Virus record (IMG/VR): IMGVR_UViG_2667527584_000004
Source: a virus
Taxonomy: Duplodnaviria; Heunggongvirae; Uroviricota; Caudoviricetes
DNA: 4,535 nt
Reading direction: 5' to 3' (one strand)
In this document: positions 1 to 4,325 of the stretch, one piece after another
Layout: the number at the start of each line of letters is the position of its first letter
Position numbering within the stretch: position 1 is the stretch's first letter
The notes under the pieces: generated by a model
Databases searched by the model: none
Seen by the model: the letters and a program-made list of their open reading frames with translations, nothing else
What the model was told of the DNA's origin: nothing
Position numbers and translations under genes: made by a program

Positions 1-325
1 CGGCAAGAGTCAGTAATTGTCCCTGGTCTTCCTGCAGAATAGTCAGGCGACCACCGCGATTGACATACATCGGCGTTTCGGTGGTGTCTTCTTCGGAAAT
101 TTTCCCGCGGTTAGTCGGACGAACATATGAGAGTTTGTGTTTTATTTTCACACGGTTCTCATCAAACGGTTCGATTTCCAGGTTGAGCGAGACCTTACCT
201 TTGGTTTTCGTGTTCATCACACCGGAAGCGACTTCACTGAGAACTGCGCCGATTTTGGTTTCAAATACGCCGCCGTCCAGCTCCCCGATAAATTCCTGCA
301 CGTTGGTACTGCGTTCGCTAGCCAT
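1..325 (-). CDS. Hypothetical prophage early-left protein; N-terminal ~108 codons only, gene continues past the window start
   Basis: Minus-strand reading frame open to the window edge, so absent from the ORF track. ATG at 325-323 with GAGGAG (338-333) 7 nt upstream. Translation begins MASERSTNVQEFIGELDGGVFETKIGAVLSEVASGVMNTKTKGKVSLNLEIEPFDENRVKIKH. Family not recognised. Confidence 0.7.
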   Translation of the reverse strand, partial: MASERSTNVQEFIGELDGGVFETKIGAVLSEVASGVMNTKTKGKVSLNLEIEPFDENRVKIKHKLSYVRPTNRGKISEEDTTETPMYVNRGGRLTILQEDQGQLLTLA

Positions 326-373
326 TTTGCTGCTCCTCATCATATCGACCCTGCAAGGTCGGTTGGTTTCTCC

Positions 374-462
374 ACAAAACAGAGAAGAACACCTGCGGTG
401 GCAGCCGCCCGGGTGGATTGGGTTATGAGCCCGTCGTCCGGTGATGCTCTTCTCTGTTTTGT
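374..462. repeat. 15-bp perfect inverted repeat (ACAAAACAGAGAAGA at 374-388, TCTTCTCTGTTTTGT at 448-462) around a 59-nt GC-rich spacer
   Basis: Read directly from the sequence; the arms are exact reverse complements. Confidence 0.8.
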
Positions 463-508
463 AAAAAGAGCGGTACCAGCCGGAAGCAAGGGTACAAGCT
501 GGTACCGC
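461..508 (-). terminator. Candidate intrinsic terminator for leftward transcription
   Basis: 11-bp perfect GC-rich stem (470-480 GCGGTACCAGC pairs with 498-508 GCTGGTACCGC) with a 17-nt loop. On the minus strand the stem is followed by TCTTTTT (469-463). No T-tract follows it on the plus strand. The loop is long for a canonical terminator. Confidence 0.45.
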
Positions 509-793
509 CAGGACTACACACAGCATAAAGTTGTGGTGCCGGGTGCCTCCCGGTGCCTGGCGAAGGTTGCACACCAGGCGGGTGGGTATCCACAGAAGGT
601 CGACTGTCAGCCTCAACCTTAACCCGCGTGCGCTGAGCCGCATTCACCACAACGCTAAGGATTCTCTCTGGTTGAAAATACTTAGCTGTTATGTGCCTGC
701 TTTTAGCCACATCAGGCGAGGTGGGCCTGGTTATTCCCCAACAACAAGGATTCGGCTAATCTGGATGACTCTGTTCTTAGAGGGGATAATTAA

Positions 794-1306
794 ATGGGAG
801 CGATTTATGTTAAACGTTTGATTCTGTCGGTAGCACTGATAATACCGATAGCATCCAATGCTTCTGATGCTTTGAACCAGCCGAGCAGTAGTCTAAATGA
901 TGGTGTTGAGACTTTTTTTATTTCCTGCTTTGATATGCCTCAGGAAACAACTACTGATATGGACGCTTGTCAGAGAGTTCAGTTAGCTCAGGTTAGTTGG
1001 GTTAAGAATAAGTATTCGGTGGCCGCCCTGAATCGTTTGAAACAAGACAACAAGGATGATCCACAGCGTCTGCAGGAATTAACTGCTTCTTTTAACGCGG
1101 AAAGTGAAGCTTGGACAGAATTAATTGAGAAAGCGTCAAAGTCCGTCCAGGTTGATTATGCAGGAGGAACTATAGCTGGCACTGCAGTTGCATCACGTCA
1201 AATTGGTCTTCTGGAATTACAATCCCACGATATCTGGGAGCACTGGCTACGATTCGAGGACTCAACTCCTCCTCTTTTGCCAGAACCAAAGTTCAAATCT
1301 GAGTAA
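794..1306 (+). CDS. Secreted/periplasmic protein with Sec signal peptide; tentatively DUF1311 (LprI lysozyme-inhibitor-like) family; prophage moron
   Basis: 170-aa ORF. ATG at 794 with GAGGGG 9-14 nt upstream. N-terminus MGAIYVKRLILSVALIIPIASNA then SDA has the n-region, hydrophobic core and AXA cleavage site of a signal peptide. Double stop TAATAA, then a terminator. GC content clearly lower than flanks. Family assignment rests on a remembered motif pattern (Cys pair near N-terminus, AW...YAGG segment). Confidence 0.8.
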   Translation: MGAIYVKRLILSVALIIPIASNASDALNQPSSSLNDGVETFFISCFDMPQETTTDMDACQRVQLAQVSWVKNKYSVAALNRLKQDNKDDPQRLQELTASFNAESEAWTELIEKASKSVQVDYAGGTIAGTAVASRQIGLLELQSHDIWEHWLRFEDSTPPLLPEPKFKSE

Positions 1307-1319
1307 TAAGTCATCCAGA

Positions 1320-1332
1320 TTGTTAAAGAGCG
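1320..1332 (-). promoter_or_regulatory. boxA-like motif CGCTCTTTAACAA on the minus strand, about 100 nt downstream of the PL-like promoter
   Basis: Reverse complement of plus 1320-1332. Matches the lambda/rrn boxA core CGCTCTT(T)A and 12 of 13 positions of the rrn boxA as I recall it (TGCTCTTTAACAA). Functional status unknown. Confidence 0.3.
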
Positions 1333-1333
1333 A

Positions 1334-1360
1334 AGCGTCCTATAGGGCGCTTTTTTGTTG
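1334..1360 (+). terminator. Rho-independent terminator of the secreted-protein gene
   Basis: Stem AGCGTCC (1334-1340) / GGGCGCT (1345-1351) with one G-U pair, loop TATA, followed by TTTTTTGTTG, 28 nt after the stop codon. Confidence 0.7.
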
Positions 1361-1441
1361 CTAACGAATCATCCTGGACTTCATATGCCCCAGGCGGCTA
1401 CTTCGTGGGCGTCCTGCCTGTTTGTTGTTTCTCTTGGGTAC

Positions 1442-1469
1442 ATTATGTATCTCAAAGGTACATTGTCAA
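1442..1469 (-). promoter_or_regulatory. PL-like leftward promoter
   Basis: Minus strand: -35 TTGACA (1469-1464), 16-nt spacer, -10 CATAAT (1447-1442). An operator overlaps the spacer. Confidence 0.6.
1446..1462. promoter_or_regulatory. OL-type operator TGTACCTTTGAGATACA (one mismatch from TGTAC-N7-GTACA)
   Basis: Same 17-bp dyad as the two perfect sites between the repressor and cro-like genes. An extra TGTACC half-site lies at 1441-1436 on the minus strand. Confidence 0.5.
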
Positions 1470-1470
1470 G

Positions 1471-1497
1471 TATAAAAAAACCTGCCGAAGCAGGTTC
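1471..1497 (-). terminator. Intrinsic terminator downstream of the repressor gene
   Basis: Minus strand reads AACCTGC-TTCG-GCAGGTT followed by TTTTTATA: a 7-bp stem with a UUCG tetraloop and T-tract, starting 12 nt after the repressor stop (1509-1511). Confidence 0.75.
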
Positions 1498-1508
1498 ATA
1501 AACATTGA

Positions 1509-2183
1509 TTAGGCTTTGATTTTGTATCTTCTTGGTTTTCCTGAGAAAATCACAGTACCAATTATAGAGCAATTACCGTTGATCTTAATGTAAGGCTCAG
1601 GCCAGTTTGGGTTTAACGCTTTGAGATAACGCTGTGTCCCATCTTCTATCAACCTTTTGAAGGTGGTTTCACCTGTATCGTGCATCAATGCAATAACGTC
1701 GTCACCGTGGCAGGCAGGTACTTCAGGATCGACAAAAATCATGTCTCCCGGGCGGTACTCATCAATCATTGAATCACCTATCACCCGCAAGATATAAGTC
1801 ATTTCCCCACAGGGTACAGGGCAGGGATACGTTTCTGCTGTGCTCAAATCAACCTCAGAATATCCAACTTCTTTCCATGCTCCGGCCTGTACCCATGATA
1901 TGACAGGGACTAATGTGATTTGTTTATTAGTGATTGAAACATCAGGTTTTTTTGTGATGTTCGTTGTCTGGTGTTCTTGATCGAGCCATCCGACAGGCAG
2001 GTCGAAACATTTTTCGATGTGTCGTGCCATGCTGTCACCGATATTTTTAGTAGCACCATCTCCCATAAACCTGCTGGTCTGGGTTGGCTCGCGATCAATC
2101 ATAGTGGCAAAGGAAGAATTCCCGCCAACACCATCTCTCAGTTTTCTGGCGTTAGACCGCCGGATGTCATGGATTGTTTTCAT
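1509..2183 (-). CDS. cI: CI-type prophage repressor (N-terminal HTH, C-terminal S24 LexA-like autopeptidase domain)
   Basis: 224 aa. C-terminal half carries the S24 signatures: VQAGAW (Ala-Gly cleavage site), ILRVIGDSM (catalytic Ser), TFKRL (catalytic Lys), and a VDPEV...LKALNPNWP...INGNCSIIG pattern resembling P22 C2 / lambda CI. Divergent from the cro-like gene across an operator region. Confidence 0.92.
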   Translation of the reverse strand: MKTIHDIRRSNARKLRDGVGGNSSFATMIDREPTQTSRFMGDGATKNIGDSMARHIEKCFDLPVGWLDQEHQTTNITKKPDVSITNKQITLVPVISWVQAGAWKEVGYSEVDLSTAETYPCPVPCGEMTYILRVIGDSMIDEYRPGDMIFVDPEVPACHGDDVIALMHDTGETTFKRLIEDGTQRYLKALNPNWPEPYIKINGNCSIIGTVIFSGKPRRYKIKA

Positions 2184-2273: not shown

Positions 2274-2474
2274 ATGAAAGCGTATTGGGACTCTTTAACC
2301 AAAGAACAGCAGGGCGAGTTGGCCGGAAAAGTTGGCTCAACACCTGGCTACTTACGGCTGGTTTTCAATGGCTATAAAAAAGCCAGTTTTGTGCTGGCTA
2401 AAAAACTTGAGCAATGCACGTCAGGTGCAATTACGAAATCTGACTTAAGACCGGATATCTATCCGAAAGATTAG
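2274..2474 (+). CDS. Cro-like HTH regulator (YdaS/Cro family)
   Basis: 66 aa, MKAYWDSLTKEQQGELAGKVGSTPGYLRLVFNGYKKASFVLAKKLEQCTSGAITKSDLRPDIYPKD. GGAGG 11 nt upstream. The in-frame upstream ATG at 2250 lies inside the operator/-10 and is rejected. Pattern matches short YdaS-type Cro analogues. Confidence 0.85.
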   Translation: MKAYWDSLTKEQQGELAGKVGSTPGYLRLVFNGYKKASFVLAKKLEQCTSGAITKSDLRPDIYPKD

Positions 2475-2505: not shown

Positions 2506-3069
2506 ATGAGGCTAATCGTGGGTAAGCATCACTGGAAAATAGAAAAACAGCCTGAGTGGTACGTGAAAGCTGTCAGAAAAACGATCGCGGCGTTGCCGGG
2601 TGGTTACGCTGAAGCGGCTGACTGGCTCGATGTAACAGAAAACGCTTTATTCAACCGCCTTCGTGCAGATGGCGATCAGATTTTCCCGCTGGGATGGGCA
2701 ATGGTTTTACAGCGTGCTGGTGGCACTCACTTCATTGCTGATGCTGTGGCGCAGTCTGCAAATGGCGTCTTTGTGTCTCTTCCTGACGTCGAGGATGTGG
2801 ACAACGCCGATATCAACCAACGCCTGCTGGAGGTCATTGAACAGATCGGCAGTTATTCAAAACAGATTCGTTCAGCAATTGAAGACGGTGTAGTGGAACC
2901 GCATGAGAAGACAGCAATTAACGATGAGCTGTACCTCTCAATTTCGAAGCTGCAGGAGCATGCAGCACTGGTCTACAAAATCTTTTGCGTTTCAGAAAGT
3001 AGTGACGCCCGCGAGTGTGCAGCTCCGGGCGCCGTGGCGTGTCGTGACTGTGGAGAAACTAACGCATGA
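2506..3069 (+). CDS. YdaT/CII-like early regulator
   Basis: 187-aa ORF 31 nt after the cro-like gene. Family call is from remembered similarity to YdaT-type proteins that follow YdaS in Rac-like prophages. ATG 2506 has no clear Shine-Dalgarno; an in-frame GTG at 2518 preceded by GAGG (2508-2511) is an alternative start. C-terminus has a CRDC motif. Confidence 0.8.
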
Positions 3070-3404
3070 ACAGTTTAACAACACACTACCGTCGCTCGCA
3101 ACTGATTGCGCTTCCTGTACCGGGTGGAAAAGCGAAGGTGGAGTATTGCTATGCAGTAAATGTACCAGGTGACAGGGAAATTGTAACCCACAGCTTTGCT
3201 GAGTGGGCTGTGGGTGATTTCAACCGGCAGAAGGAGACAGTCCTTTGCGACAAGTTAACCGCTGGTTCAAAGATCACTACGGAGTGCCCGTCAGAGTCAT
3301 TCGTTGGGAACCGGAAACACAACGGGTTATCTACCTCCGCGAAGGCTATGAGCATGAATGCTTCAGTCCGCTCGAACAGTTTCGTCGTAAATTCAGGGAA
3401 ATAG
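3066..3404 (+). CDS. Hypothetical ORF (doubtful); overlaps the stop of the preceding gene (ATGA) and the whole small gene at 3245..3424
   Basis: 112-aa ORF from the track. The N-terminal half looks protein-like; the C-terminal half is Ser/Asn-rich and looks like an off-frame read of the 3245..3424 gene. Confidence 0.3.
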
Positions 3405-3424
3405 AGGTCGGTCATGAGCACTAA
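3245..3424 (+). CDS. Small phage protein, DUF4222-like (tentative), TTG start
   Basis: AGGAG (3232-3236) 8 nt upstream of TTG 3245. Translation [59 protein letters not shown] fits a remembered DUF4222 pattern. Overlaps the O-like start by 11 nt. Below the ORF-track length cut-off. Confidence 0.5.
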
Positions 3425-4325
3425 ATTAACCGGCTATGTATGGGATGGTTGCGCTGCGTCAGGCATGAAGTTATCCAGCGTGGCAATTATGGCCCGCCTG
3501 GCTGATTTCAGTAATGACGAAGGTGTGTGCTGGCCATCAATTGAAACCATTGCCCGCCAGATTGGCGCGGGGATGAGTACCGTCAGAACGGCTATCGCAC
3601 GGCTGGAAGCAGAAGGCTGGTTAACGCGTAAGGCGCGTCGCCAGGGTAACCGCAATGCGTCGAATGTTTATCAGCTTAACGTTGCGAAGCTTCAGGCAGC
3701 GGCATTTTCTCAACTGTCAGATTCTGACCCGTCAAAATTTGATGCGTCGAAATCTGGCAAAAAAGCGGGTTTTCACCCGTCAGAATCTGGCGGGGATCCG
3801 TCAGTAAAATCAAAACATGATCCGTCAGATAAAAAAACTTCTCGTCCGGACGCTTCGCAACCGGACACGCAGACGGCTGAACAGGAGTTTTTAACTCGCC
3901 ATCCTGATGCTGTTGTATTCAGCCCTAAAAAGCGCCAGTGGGGAACGCAGGATGATTTGACCTGCGCACAGTGGCTCTGGAAAAAAATCATCGCCCTGTA
4001 CGAGCAGGCTGCCGAATGTGACGGCGAGGTGGTTCGTCCCAAAGAACCGAACTGGACAGCCTGGGCAAACGAAATTCGCCTGATGTGTGTGCAGGATGGT
4101 CGTACTCACAAACAAATCTGCGAGATGTACAGCCGCGTCAGCCGCGATCCGTTCTGGTGCCGTAACGTGCTCAGCCCGTCGAAGCTGCGGGAAAAATGGG
4201 ATGAGCTTTCCCTGCGCTTATCGCCGTCCGTAAGTACGTACACCGAAAAACGCGAGGACCCGTACTTCAAAGCCAGTTACGACAACGTGGACTACAGCCA
4301 GATCCCGGCAGGATTCAGGGGGTGA
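3414..4325 (+). CDS. Replication initiator, lambda O-like (N-terminal HTH, iteron-encoded linker, C-terminal domain)
   Basis: 303 aa. GAGG (3403-3406) 7 nt upstream. N-terminal winged-helix-like segment SIETIARQIGAGMSTVRTAIARLEAEGWL. The central low-complexity DPS-rich linker is encoded by DNA direct repeats, the hallmark of ori-lambda-type origins inside O genes. Confidence 0.9.
   Translation: MSTKLTGYVWDGCAASGMKLSSVAIMARLADFSNDEGVCWPSIETIARQIGAGMSTVRTAIARLEAEGWLTRKARRQGNRNASNVYQLNVAKLQAAAFSQLSDSDPSKFDASKSGKKAGFHPSESGGDPSVKSKHDPSDKKTSRPDASQPDTQTAEQEFLTRHPDAVVFSPKKRQWGTQDDLTCAQWLWKKIIALYEQAAECDGEVVRPKEPNWTAWANEIRLMCVQDGRTHKQICEMYSRVSRDPFWCRNVLSPSKLREKWDELSLRLSPSVSTYTEKREDPYFKASYDNVDYSQIPAGFRG
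3714..3836. repeat. Iteron array, probable phage replication origin within the O-like gene
   Basis: Six copies of a CCGTCAGA-type core starting at 3714 (CTGTCAGA), 3729 (CCGTCAAA), 3744 (GCGTCGAA), 3777 (CCGTCAGA), 3798 (CCGTCAGT) and 3822 (CCGTCAGA), followed by an A-rich tract (3829-3837). Confidence 0.7.

Follow-up and report, generated by a model that had tools for sequence, protein, structure and literature searches.

Gene content of the locus

The DNA analyzed here, referred to as the window, is a stretch of 4,535 bases from IMG/VR virus record IMGVR_UViG_2667527584_000004; it belongs to an SfV/CPS-53-like prophage, whose immunity and early region it represents. Its subject is an open reading frame (ORF) on the + strand, at positions 794 to 1306, which starts with ATG and encodes a protein of 170 amino acids (aa) (Table 1). 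UTI89, S88, APEC O1, IHE3034, and other Escherichia coli genomes, mostly of extraintestinal pathogenic (ExPEC) or avian pathogenic (APEC) strains, match the window at 99.9% identity. The product, WP_000500990.1, is a “hypothetical protein” in the UTI89 annotation, a literature search by this accession returned nothing, and the protein matches phrog_7681 over 170/170 residues (E value of 1e-120). With high confidence, we identify the ORF as a cargo gene of the DUF1311 family whose product is predicted to be exported.

An earlier note on this DNA, made from the letters alone, had described a self-contained gene for a 170-aa secreted protein between the leftward promoter (PL) and the early-left genes, in the opposite orientation. 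The ORF is indeed coding: pairwise ratios of nonsynonymous to synonymous substitution rates (dN/dS) against homologues of Klebsiella-type and E. albertii-type prophages are 0.08 to 0.21, indicating a real gene under purifying selection. Its own Shine-Dalgarno (SD) sequence, GAGGGG, is likewise present. The placement also holds, since PL lies on the − strand to the right of the ORF and yfdP, yfdQ, and yfdR, the early-left genes, lie to its left in UTI89. With this geometry, PL transcription would cross the ORF antisense, as had been proposed.

The Sec signal peptide is predicted from sequence features only. The N terminus, MGAIYVKR-LILSVALIIPIA-SNA↓SD, has basic residues at K7 and R8, followed by the sole hydrophobic stretch of the protein (aa 6 to 20, with a core at aa 9 to 20 and Kyte-Doolittle values up to 2.9), and it has S at −3 and A at −1 of the predicted signal peptidase I (SPase I) site and no lipobox. 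Homologues also have S21 and the [AS]-x-[AS] cleavage motif, and the predicted local distance difference test (pLDDT) score of the AlphaFold2 (AF2) model is below 50 across aa 1 to 24. An export signal (of a secreted, periplasmic, or lipoprotein type) is a trait of the DUF1311 family, and the predicted Sec/SPase I-type N terminus agrees with it. The predicted mature form has 147 aa, a mass of 16.5 kDa, a pI of 4.6, and two cysteines.

Family assignment and predicted fold

Three kinds of evidence support the DUF1311/LprI-like identity considered in the earlier note: a profile search, a comparison of profiles with each other, and a modeled structure. The direct profile check that it had proposed fell short of the cutoff: in a Pfam scan, LprI (PF07007) matched aa 50 to 137 (model positions 8 to 96 of 106) with 17.3 bits against a gathering score of 22 bits (E value of 0.0062). 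The close family is narrow, with 21 clusters from Escherichia and Klebsiella. A profile made from this family only (A2), searched against 1.84 billion representative proteins, gave 242 matches at an E value of ≤1e-3, 62 of them at ≤1e-10, and PF07007 (E value of ≤1e-3) was found in 59 of the 61 proteins scanned, i.e., 60 of the best A2 matches plus the query. Alignment of A2 with a profile of 35 distant canonical members (A4) by hhalign gave a probability of 99.9%, an E value of 8.6e-33, and 34% identity over 118 columns. The distant-member profile in turn matches the DUF1311 crystal structure 3GI7, which is PP0307 of Pseudomonas putida and the structural representative of PF07007, at 1.3e-5, and it also matches 6AR7.

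Structure prediction, the second check proposed, points the same way. The AF2 model (pLDDT of 80; predicted template modeling score of 0.75) has a disordered signal peptide, a β-hairpin at aa 31 to 43, helices at aa 53 to 85, 90 to 121, and 126 to 152, and a C-terminal strand at aa 164 to 169. Foldseek placed 3GI7 first, with a probability of 0.98 to 0.99, consistent with a predicted three-helix-bundle fold of the DUF1311 type. A phmmer search of PDB sequences returned noise only. By its sequence relatives and its modeled fold, the protein is a divergent DUF1311/LprI member.

The protein belongs to a subfamily with a conserved C terminus. The tail H-x-x-W-x-x-W-L-x-[YF]-x-DSTPPxLPEP is common to the 170-aa protein and to alphaproteobacterial to gammaproteobacterial DUF1311 proteins, including A4-type members in Vibrio, Photobacterium, Psychromonas, sphingomonads, and others. 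To our knowledge, this tail subfamily has no published name. The four-cysteine (two-disulfide) pattern is incomplete in the prophage protein, with the third cysteine replaced by S115 and the fourth by R135, the latter invariant in the clade. The N-terminal β-hairpin is restricted to the enterobacterial clade.

A variable cargo slot beside the immunity region

The gene occupies a slot whose content varies while its borders do not. The flanks, positions 1 to 764/766 and from 1313/1315 onward, are 97 to 99% identical (blastn) in PhiR29_1, SfIV, and Kati, which carry unrelated genes between them, and the cassette-specific parts are the SD sequence and the ORF only. The cassette is thus present or absent at a fixed slot between collinear phages, as is typical of a moron. 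A survey of the slot, with an 18-mer from the conserved element on the left as its anchor, covered 61 IMG/VR contigs with both flanks and found at least eight cargo types, in which the main ORF was always on the + strand and started ∼30 nucleotides (nt) (or ∼120 nt) past the junction. The commonest was the 144-aa SfIV_36 type. In another, a small ORF precedes the gene for a 150- to 159-aa protein with two predicted transmembrane helices, and a further type encodes a coiled-coil plus zinc-ribbon protein of ∼170 aa. The other cargo proteins had no Pfam or PADLOC match. Because at least eight cargo types lie between the same flanks, the slot is a cargo hotspot and the gene is one of several interchangeable passengers, which supports the earlier note insofar as the gene sits in a variable cargo position next to the immunity region.

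Of 5,426 complete E. coli genomes, 142 carry the gene, as do 28 IMG/VR contigs. A tblastn search of 50,697 GenBank phage records gave no match, so that the known occurrences of the gene are confined to prophages and IMG/VR contigs. In Klebsiella variicola, a prophage whose repressor differs has a 71%-identical homologue in the same slot (YfdP, gene, repressor). Raoultella, Klebsiella sp., and Erwiniaceae have homologues with 56 to 66% identity as ordinary chromosomal genes.

Damaged copies also occur. In E. coli FDAARGOS_1300, an IS3-family insertion element breaks the gene after its first ∼96 nt (window position ∼889), and the region to the right of the element, repressor included, has been replaced. 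Shortened copies of 95 to 122 aa are found in the protein database, and frameshifted copies exist as well.

These observations bear on whether the gene could be a mere passenger, captured from an enterobacterial chromosome at the hotspot, poorly expressed or silent, and nearly or wholly without function in the lysogen. Such a history would agree with the chromosomal homologues in Raoultella, Klebsiella, and Erwiniaceae, the IS3-disrupted E. coli copy, the truncated and frameshifted copies, and the lack of a recognizable promoter (see below). However, dN/dS values are low among the copies borne by E. coli, E. albertii-type, and Klebsiella prophages, the gene is intact in the 142 complete E. coli genomes, its slot is the same in different genera and immunity types, and the SD sequence and signal peptide are conserved. 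A passenger of this kind is thus quite unlikely.

The location could instead suggest superinfection exclusion, which the earlier note had raised together with envelope protection. Spackle of phage T4 is a periplasmic protein that acts on lysozyme, and a protein of this type would inhibit the lysozyme or transglycosylase of an incoming phage. The place of the gene in a variable slot next to the immunity region, its orientation, which is the one expected of lysogen-expressed genes, and the predicted periplasmic location and helical fold of the product would suit this function. Against it, PADLOC had no match for the ORF product or for the other slot occupants. The sole NCBIfam match of the protein was noise (11.7 bits against a cutoff of 410 bits). 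Envelope protection and exclusion gain no direct support. Among the structural matches, no phage protein, Spackle-like or other, was present (a Foldseek search of BFVD viral structures gave nothing at an E value of <0.1), and the nearest nonprophage relatives are ordinary chromosomal genes. We regard exclusion of the Spackle type as improbable.

Expression signals and conserved flanks

PL, a TTGACA-16-CATAAT promoter, has the top promoter score of the window. Operator-like 19-mers (ATGTAY-N7-GTACAT) are confined to PL, with two copies, and to PR/PRM (positions 2200 to 2268), with three; the eight strand matches compare with 0.55 expected, and none of 200 shuffled sequences attained eight. For the cassette itself, consensus and position-weight scans of positions 560 to 800 found no convincing σ70-like promoter on the + strand. 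The best candidates, TGGATG-17-GATAAT (score of 6.6), whose start point would be within the ORF, and TTCCCC-17-TAATCT (5.8; positions 734 to 762), compare with 10.8 for PR and 13.3 for PL.

The claims that the gene is self-contained, has its own terminator, and is lower in GC than its neighbors hold in part. The SD sequence and the ORF are its own, and a hairpin followed by a T-run (TTTTTTG) does lie downstream. PhiR29_1, SfIV, and the Klebsiella prophage with another repressor and other operators all have this hairpin, with changes in the loop only, and it lies to the right of the 1313/1315 border, in the flank common to phages with other cargo; it therefore belongs to the shared backbone and not to the cassette, which also has no convincing + strand promoter. 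An Rfam match to Phe_leader at positions 1259 to 1359 (E value of 0.77) was dismissed, as it corresponds to the terminator hairpin. The GC content of the ORF (43.5%) is below that of the leader (55.1%) and yfdP (49.7%) but level with that of cI (44.7%) and cro (43.8%).

Directly to the left of the cargo, a ∼75-nt element that contains the TTCCCC-17-TAATCT candidate is kept in prophages of both E. coli and Klebsiella, also in those that diverge farther to the left. Most other cargo types start with ATATCCCCAACAAC, a duplicate of TTCCCCAACAAC within this element, unlike the DUF1311 cassettes, which start with GACTCTG. This arrangement may serve the hotspot as a signal for recombination or expression.

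To the right of the cargo, a segment of ∼110 nt (positions 1316 to 1425) is conserved in the Klebsiella prophage of different immunity. On the PL transcript, a boxA-like sequence, CGCTCTTTAACAA, follows immediately 3′ of the hairpin, at ∼105 nt downstream of PL; it matches 12/12 positions of GCTCTTTAACAA, the boxA consensus. It is invariant in the phage/Klebsiella alignment, and its order, hairpin and then boxA, is of the rrn type. No N-like ORF is present, and boxA with the hairpin may therefore act as an antitermination site that depends on host factors and allows PL transcription to pass through the cargo and the structured leader.

The early-left leader on the − strand (positions 330 to 790) is strongly structured, with a minimum free energy of −185.9 kcal/mol (z score of −5.3 against shuffled sequences). 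Within it, positions 461 to 683 match Rfam family STnc100 just under the gathering score of 47 bits (45.4 bits; E value of 9e-8). STnc100 is a prophage small RNA family that was recently tied to PasD (bioRxiv 10.64898/2026.05.13.724894). The Prokaryotic Genome Annotation Pipeline places a “frameshifted hypothetical protein” across part of this leader in UTI89, which is probably spurious. The flanking elements, i.e., boxA with the hairpin, the 75-nt element, and the STnc100-like leader, are arguably as interesting as the gene itself.

Proposed function

Three published lines tie DUF1311 proteins to peptidoglycan glycosidases. First, ScwA of Salmonella is a periplasmic DUF1311 protein that raises the level of MltD and does not contribute to resistance against lysozyme (PMC7933661). 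Second, the DUF1311 protein Etsi4 of enterohemorrhagic E. coli counteracts the toxicity of the LysM effector Etse4 in the periplasm (PMC12981562). Third, proteins with an LprI domain are predicted to be the immunity partners of type VI secretion system (T6SS) effectors that are lysozyme-like or transglycosylases (PMC9796082, PMC8867033, and PMC12135965). On account of these lines, we propose, as the leading explanation, that the prophage protein binds or modulates a peptidoglycan glycosidase in the periplasm, a reading that is plausible but somewhat short of probable.

The proposed mechanism would be as follows. Positions 765 to 1313 would form a lysogenic conversion (moron) cassette in a hotspot between PL with its conserved leader segment, on one side, and the structured early-left leader, on the other. 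The product would be a Sec-exported, soluble periplasmic protein with a three-helix bundle, and it would bind a periplasmic peptidoglycan glycosidase of the lytic transglycosylase or lysozyme-like class. Binding would neutralize or modulate this enzyme and thereby alter cell wall hydrolase activity in the lysogen. Expression would be expected while CI represses PL, and after induction, antisense PL transcription through the gene should switch it off.

Several results weigh against a role as glycosidase modulator, in addition to the subthreshold Pfam score and the lack of a convincing + strand promoter. No biochemical activity has been demonstrated for the DUF1311 domain (PMC7933661). The protein has no detectable similarity to Etsi4 (BLASTP E value of 1.8; hhalign probability of 0.15) or to E. 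coli YecT (E value of 0.55; probability of 0.15). No peptidoglycan hydrolase or effector gene adjoins the ORF, whose neighbors are prophage regulatory elements. Within ±4 ORFs of 72 subfamily loci, no effector or hydrolase neighbor is shared; the widest neighbor cluster covers 10/72 loci, and housekeeping genes make up all of the annotated top clusters. The enterobacterial chromosomal copies likewise have no common neighbor and no shared effector.

The same results bear on whether the protein might be an orphan immunity protein that protects the periplasm of the lysogen against a T6SS peptidoglycan glycosidase effector, either lysozyme-like or a LysM transglycosylase. Precedent exists in the Etse4/Etsi4 pair of E. 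coli O157, tested by coexpression (PMC12981562), and in predicted DUF1311/LprI partners in Pantoea, in Salmonella Dublin, and among WHIX effectors; the prophage protein is, moreover, predicted to be soluble and periplasmic. V. cholerae TsiV3/TsaB (4NSR) is the immunity protein to the VgrG3 peptidoglycan hydrolase (PMC4832377). However, similarity to Etsi4 is absent, the wider subfamily consists of stand-alone chromosomal genes with an effector neighbor at 0/72 loci, and strong purifying selection with a tail invariant from alpha- to gammaproteobacteria suggests a conserved target and not an arms race toxin. Together with the lack of similarity to YecT, these points disfavor a classical effector-immunity arms race, and we consider an orphan T6SS immunity function unlikely. 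The conserved target could, by analogy with ScwA, perhaps be an endogenous enzyme.

Inhibition of host (animal) lysozyme, as a virulence or fitness factor of ExPEC, is suggested by the Pfam name “Lysozyme inhibitor LprI,” by LprI of Mycobacterium tuberculosis, and by the presence of ExPEC/APEC strains UTI89, S88, APEC O1, and IHE3034 among the listed carriers. By the account in PMC7933661, however, the MliC domain, and not the LprI domain, is enough for lysozyme inhibition by the M. tuberculosis protein, and resistance needs only MliC; ScwA, which is without MliC, has no lysozyme phenotype (PMC7933661). No MliC/PliC, Ivy, or PliG inhibitor domain was found in the prophage protein in Pfam at an E value of ≤1, where the subthreshold LprI match was the only one, or in NCBIfam. 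A role against animal lysozyme is therefore very unlikely. The support for it and for Spackle-like exclusion goes no further than the location and the family name.

A broader formulation combines two of these functions: the gene would be a protective weapon, acting either as orphan immunity against LysM/transglycosylase T6SS effectors or as a Spackle-like blocker of the wall-piercing enzyme of superinfecting phages, and delivered through a modular slot whose conserved flanks supply expression and termination signals. We consider this doubtful. As it stands, the gene encodes a divergent member of a known family, is borne by a prophage at a position typical of morons, and is a fairly ordinary lysogenic conversion gene.

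Other features of the window

The gene layout (Table 1) follows the UTI89 annotation and family scans.

Table 1. Features of the 4,535-base window, from left to right
Feature	Position	Strand	Basis or remark
yfdP	2..325	−	
Long noncoding leader	326-764		
Conserved ∼75-nt element directly left of cargo, with weak promoter candidate TTCCCC-17-TAATCT (734-762, +)	692..765	.	Alignment
Cargo cassette (SD and ORF), variable among related phages	765..1313	+	blastn borders, junction alignments
SD sequence GAGGGG, 8 nt 5′ of start codon	780..785	+	Read in sequence
CDS, WP_000500990.1 (phrog_7681), divergent DUF1311/LprI-family protein	794..1306	+	ORF call, family and fold matches
Predicted Sec (SPase I) signal peptide, aa 1-23, cut SNA↓SD	794..862	+	Sequence features, conserved motif, low pLDDT
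Codons C45 to C59, sole kept pair of the subfamily's four cysteines	926..970	+	Alignments, hhalign
Codons of invariant tail DSTPPLLPEP, aa 156-165	1259..1288	+	Alignments; conserved in 35 distant A4 members
boxA-like CGCTCTTTAACAA on PL transcript, immediately 3′ of hairpin	1320..1332	−	12/12 match to GCTCTTTAACAA
Hairpin (1332-1353) and T-run, intrinsic-terminator-like	1332..1358	+	Shared backbone, outside cassette
Two operator-like 19-mers overlapping PL	1425..1463	.	Motif count
PL-like promoter TTGACA-16-CATAAT	1442..1469	−	Top promoter score of window, 13.3
cI terminator	1497..1478	−	
S24 repressor gene ymfK/cI	1509..2183	−	
cro/ymfT	2274..2474		
cII-like ymfL, then DUF4222 gene	Right of cro/ymfT		
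O-like replication gene	3414..4325		

Two ORFs on the + strand, at positions 3066 to 3404 and 3245 to 3424, overlap in different frames and match phrog_1170 (112 aa) and DUF4222/phrog_1343 (59 aa), respectively; the UTI89 annotation carries the DUF4222 gene only. Inside the O-like gene, at positions 3707 to 3833, are iteron-like direct repeats of the CCGTCAGA type, four copies of ∼20 nt and two of 15 nt, which suggests an origin within the replication gene, as in lambda. The O-like gene is 30 bp longer in UTI89 (942 nt) than in the window (912 nt), and the whole-window alignment (4,564 bases in UTI89 against 4,534 in the window) places the length difference there.

Significance and comparison with known systems

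The present yield of this analysis is a family for the hypothetical protein WP_000500990.1/phrog_7681 and a cargo hotspot in SfV/CPS-53-like prophages; it opens no long-standing question. If the protein does act on a cell wall glycosidase, a temperate phage would be altering the envelope enzymology of its host, among others in ExPEC/APEC, and the gene would provide a tractable E. coli model for the widespread but biochemically uncharacterized DUF1311 domain and its conserved DSTPPxLPEP tail.

T4 Spackle and the products of rexAB and sieB resemble the prophage protein in being encoded by phage genes that are expected to be expressed in the protected cell, and rexAB and sieB also have a similar position near the immunity region. 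No sequence or structural match to them was found. In addition, the products of rexAB and sieB are cytoplasmic or membrane proteins, and the ORF lies downstream of PL on the opposite strand and outside the cI operon.

Among DUF1311 proteins, ScwA (SL1344_0490) is, by its published description, also soluble and periplasmic, its gene is low in GC and horizontally acquired, and the protein is tied to the level of the hydrolase MltD (PMC7933661). It differs in having 275 aa, with the DUF1311 domain at the C terminus, two disulfides, and a chromosomal and not a prophage location. Etsi4, like the prophage protein as predicted, is a small periplasmic protein of the DUF1311 type and is likewise subthreshold in Pfam (18.7 bits), but it directly adjoins its effector and Hcp, whereas the prophage ORF has no effector neighbor.

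Compared with canonical DUF1311/LprI proteins (PF07007; 3GI7), the prophage-borne protein lacks the second cysteine pair and has the invariant DSTPPLLPEP tail, as well as an extra N-terminal β-hairpin, which in the secondary structure of the model is accompanied by the C-terminal strand. It belongs with the tail subfamily with WLxYxDSTPPxLPEP (A4), which it resembles in length class, signal peptide, and the invariant tail motif. In contrast to the prophage protein, the A4 members of that subfamily keep four cysteines, have no N-terminal hairpin, and are encoded by stand-alone chromosomal genes.

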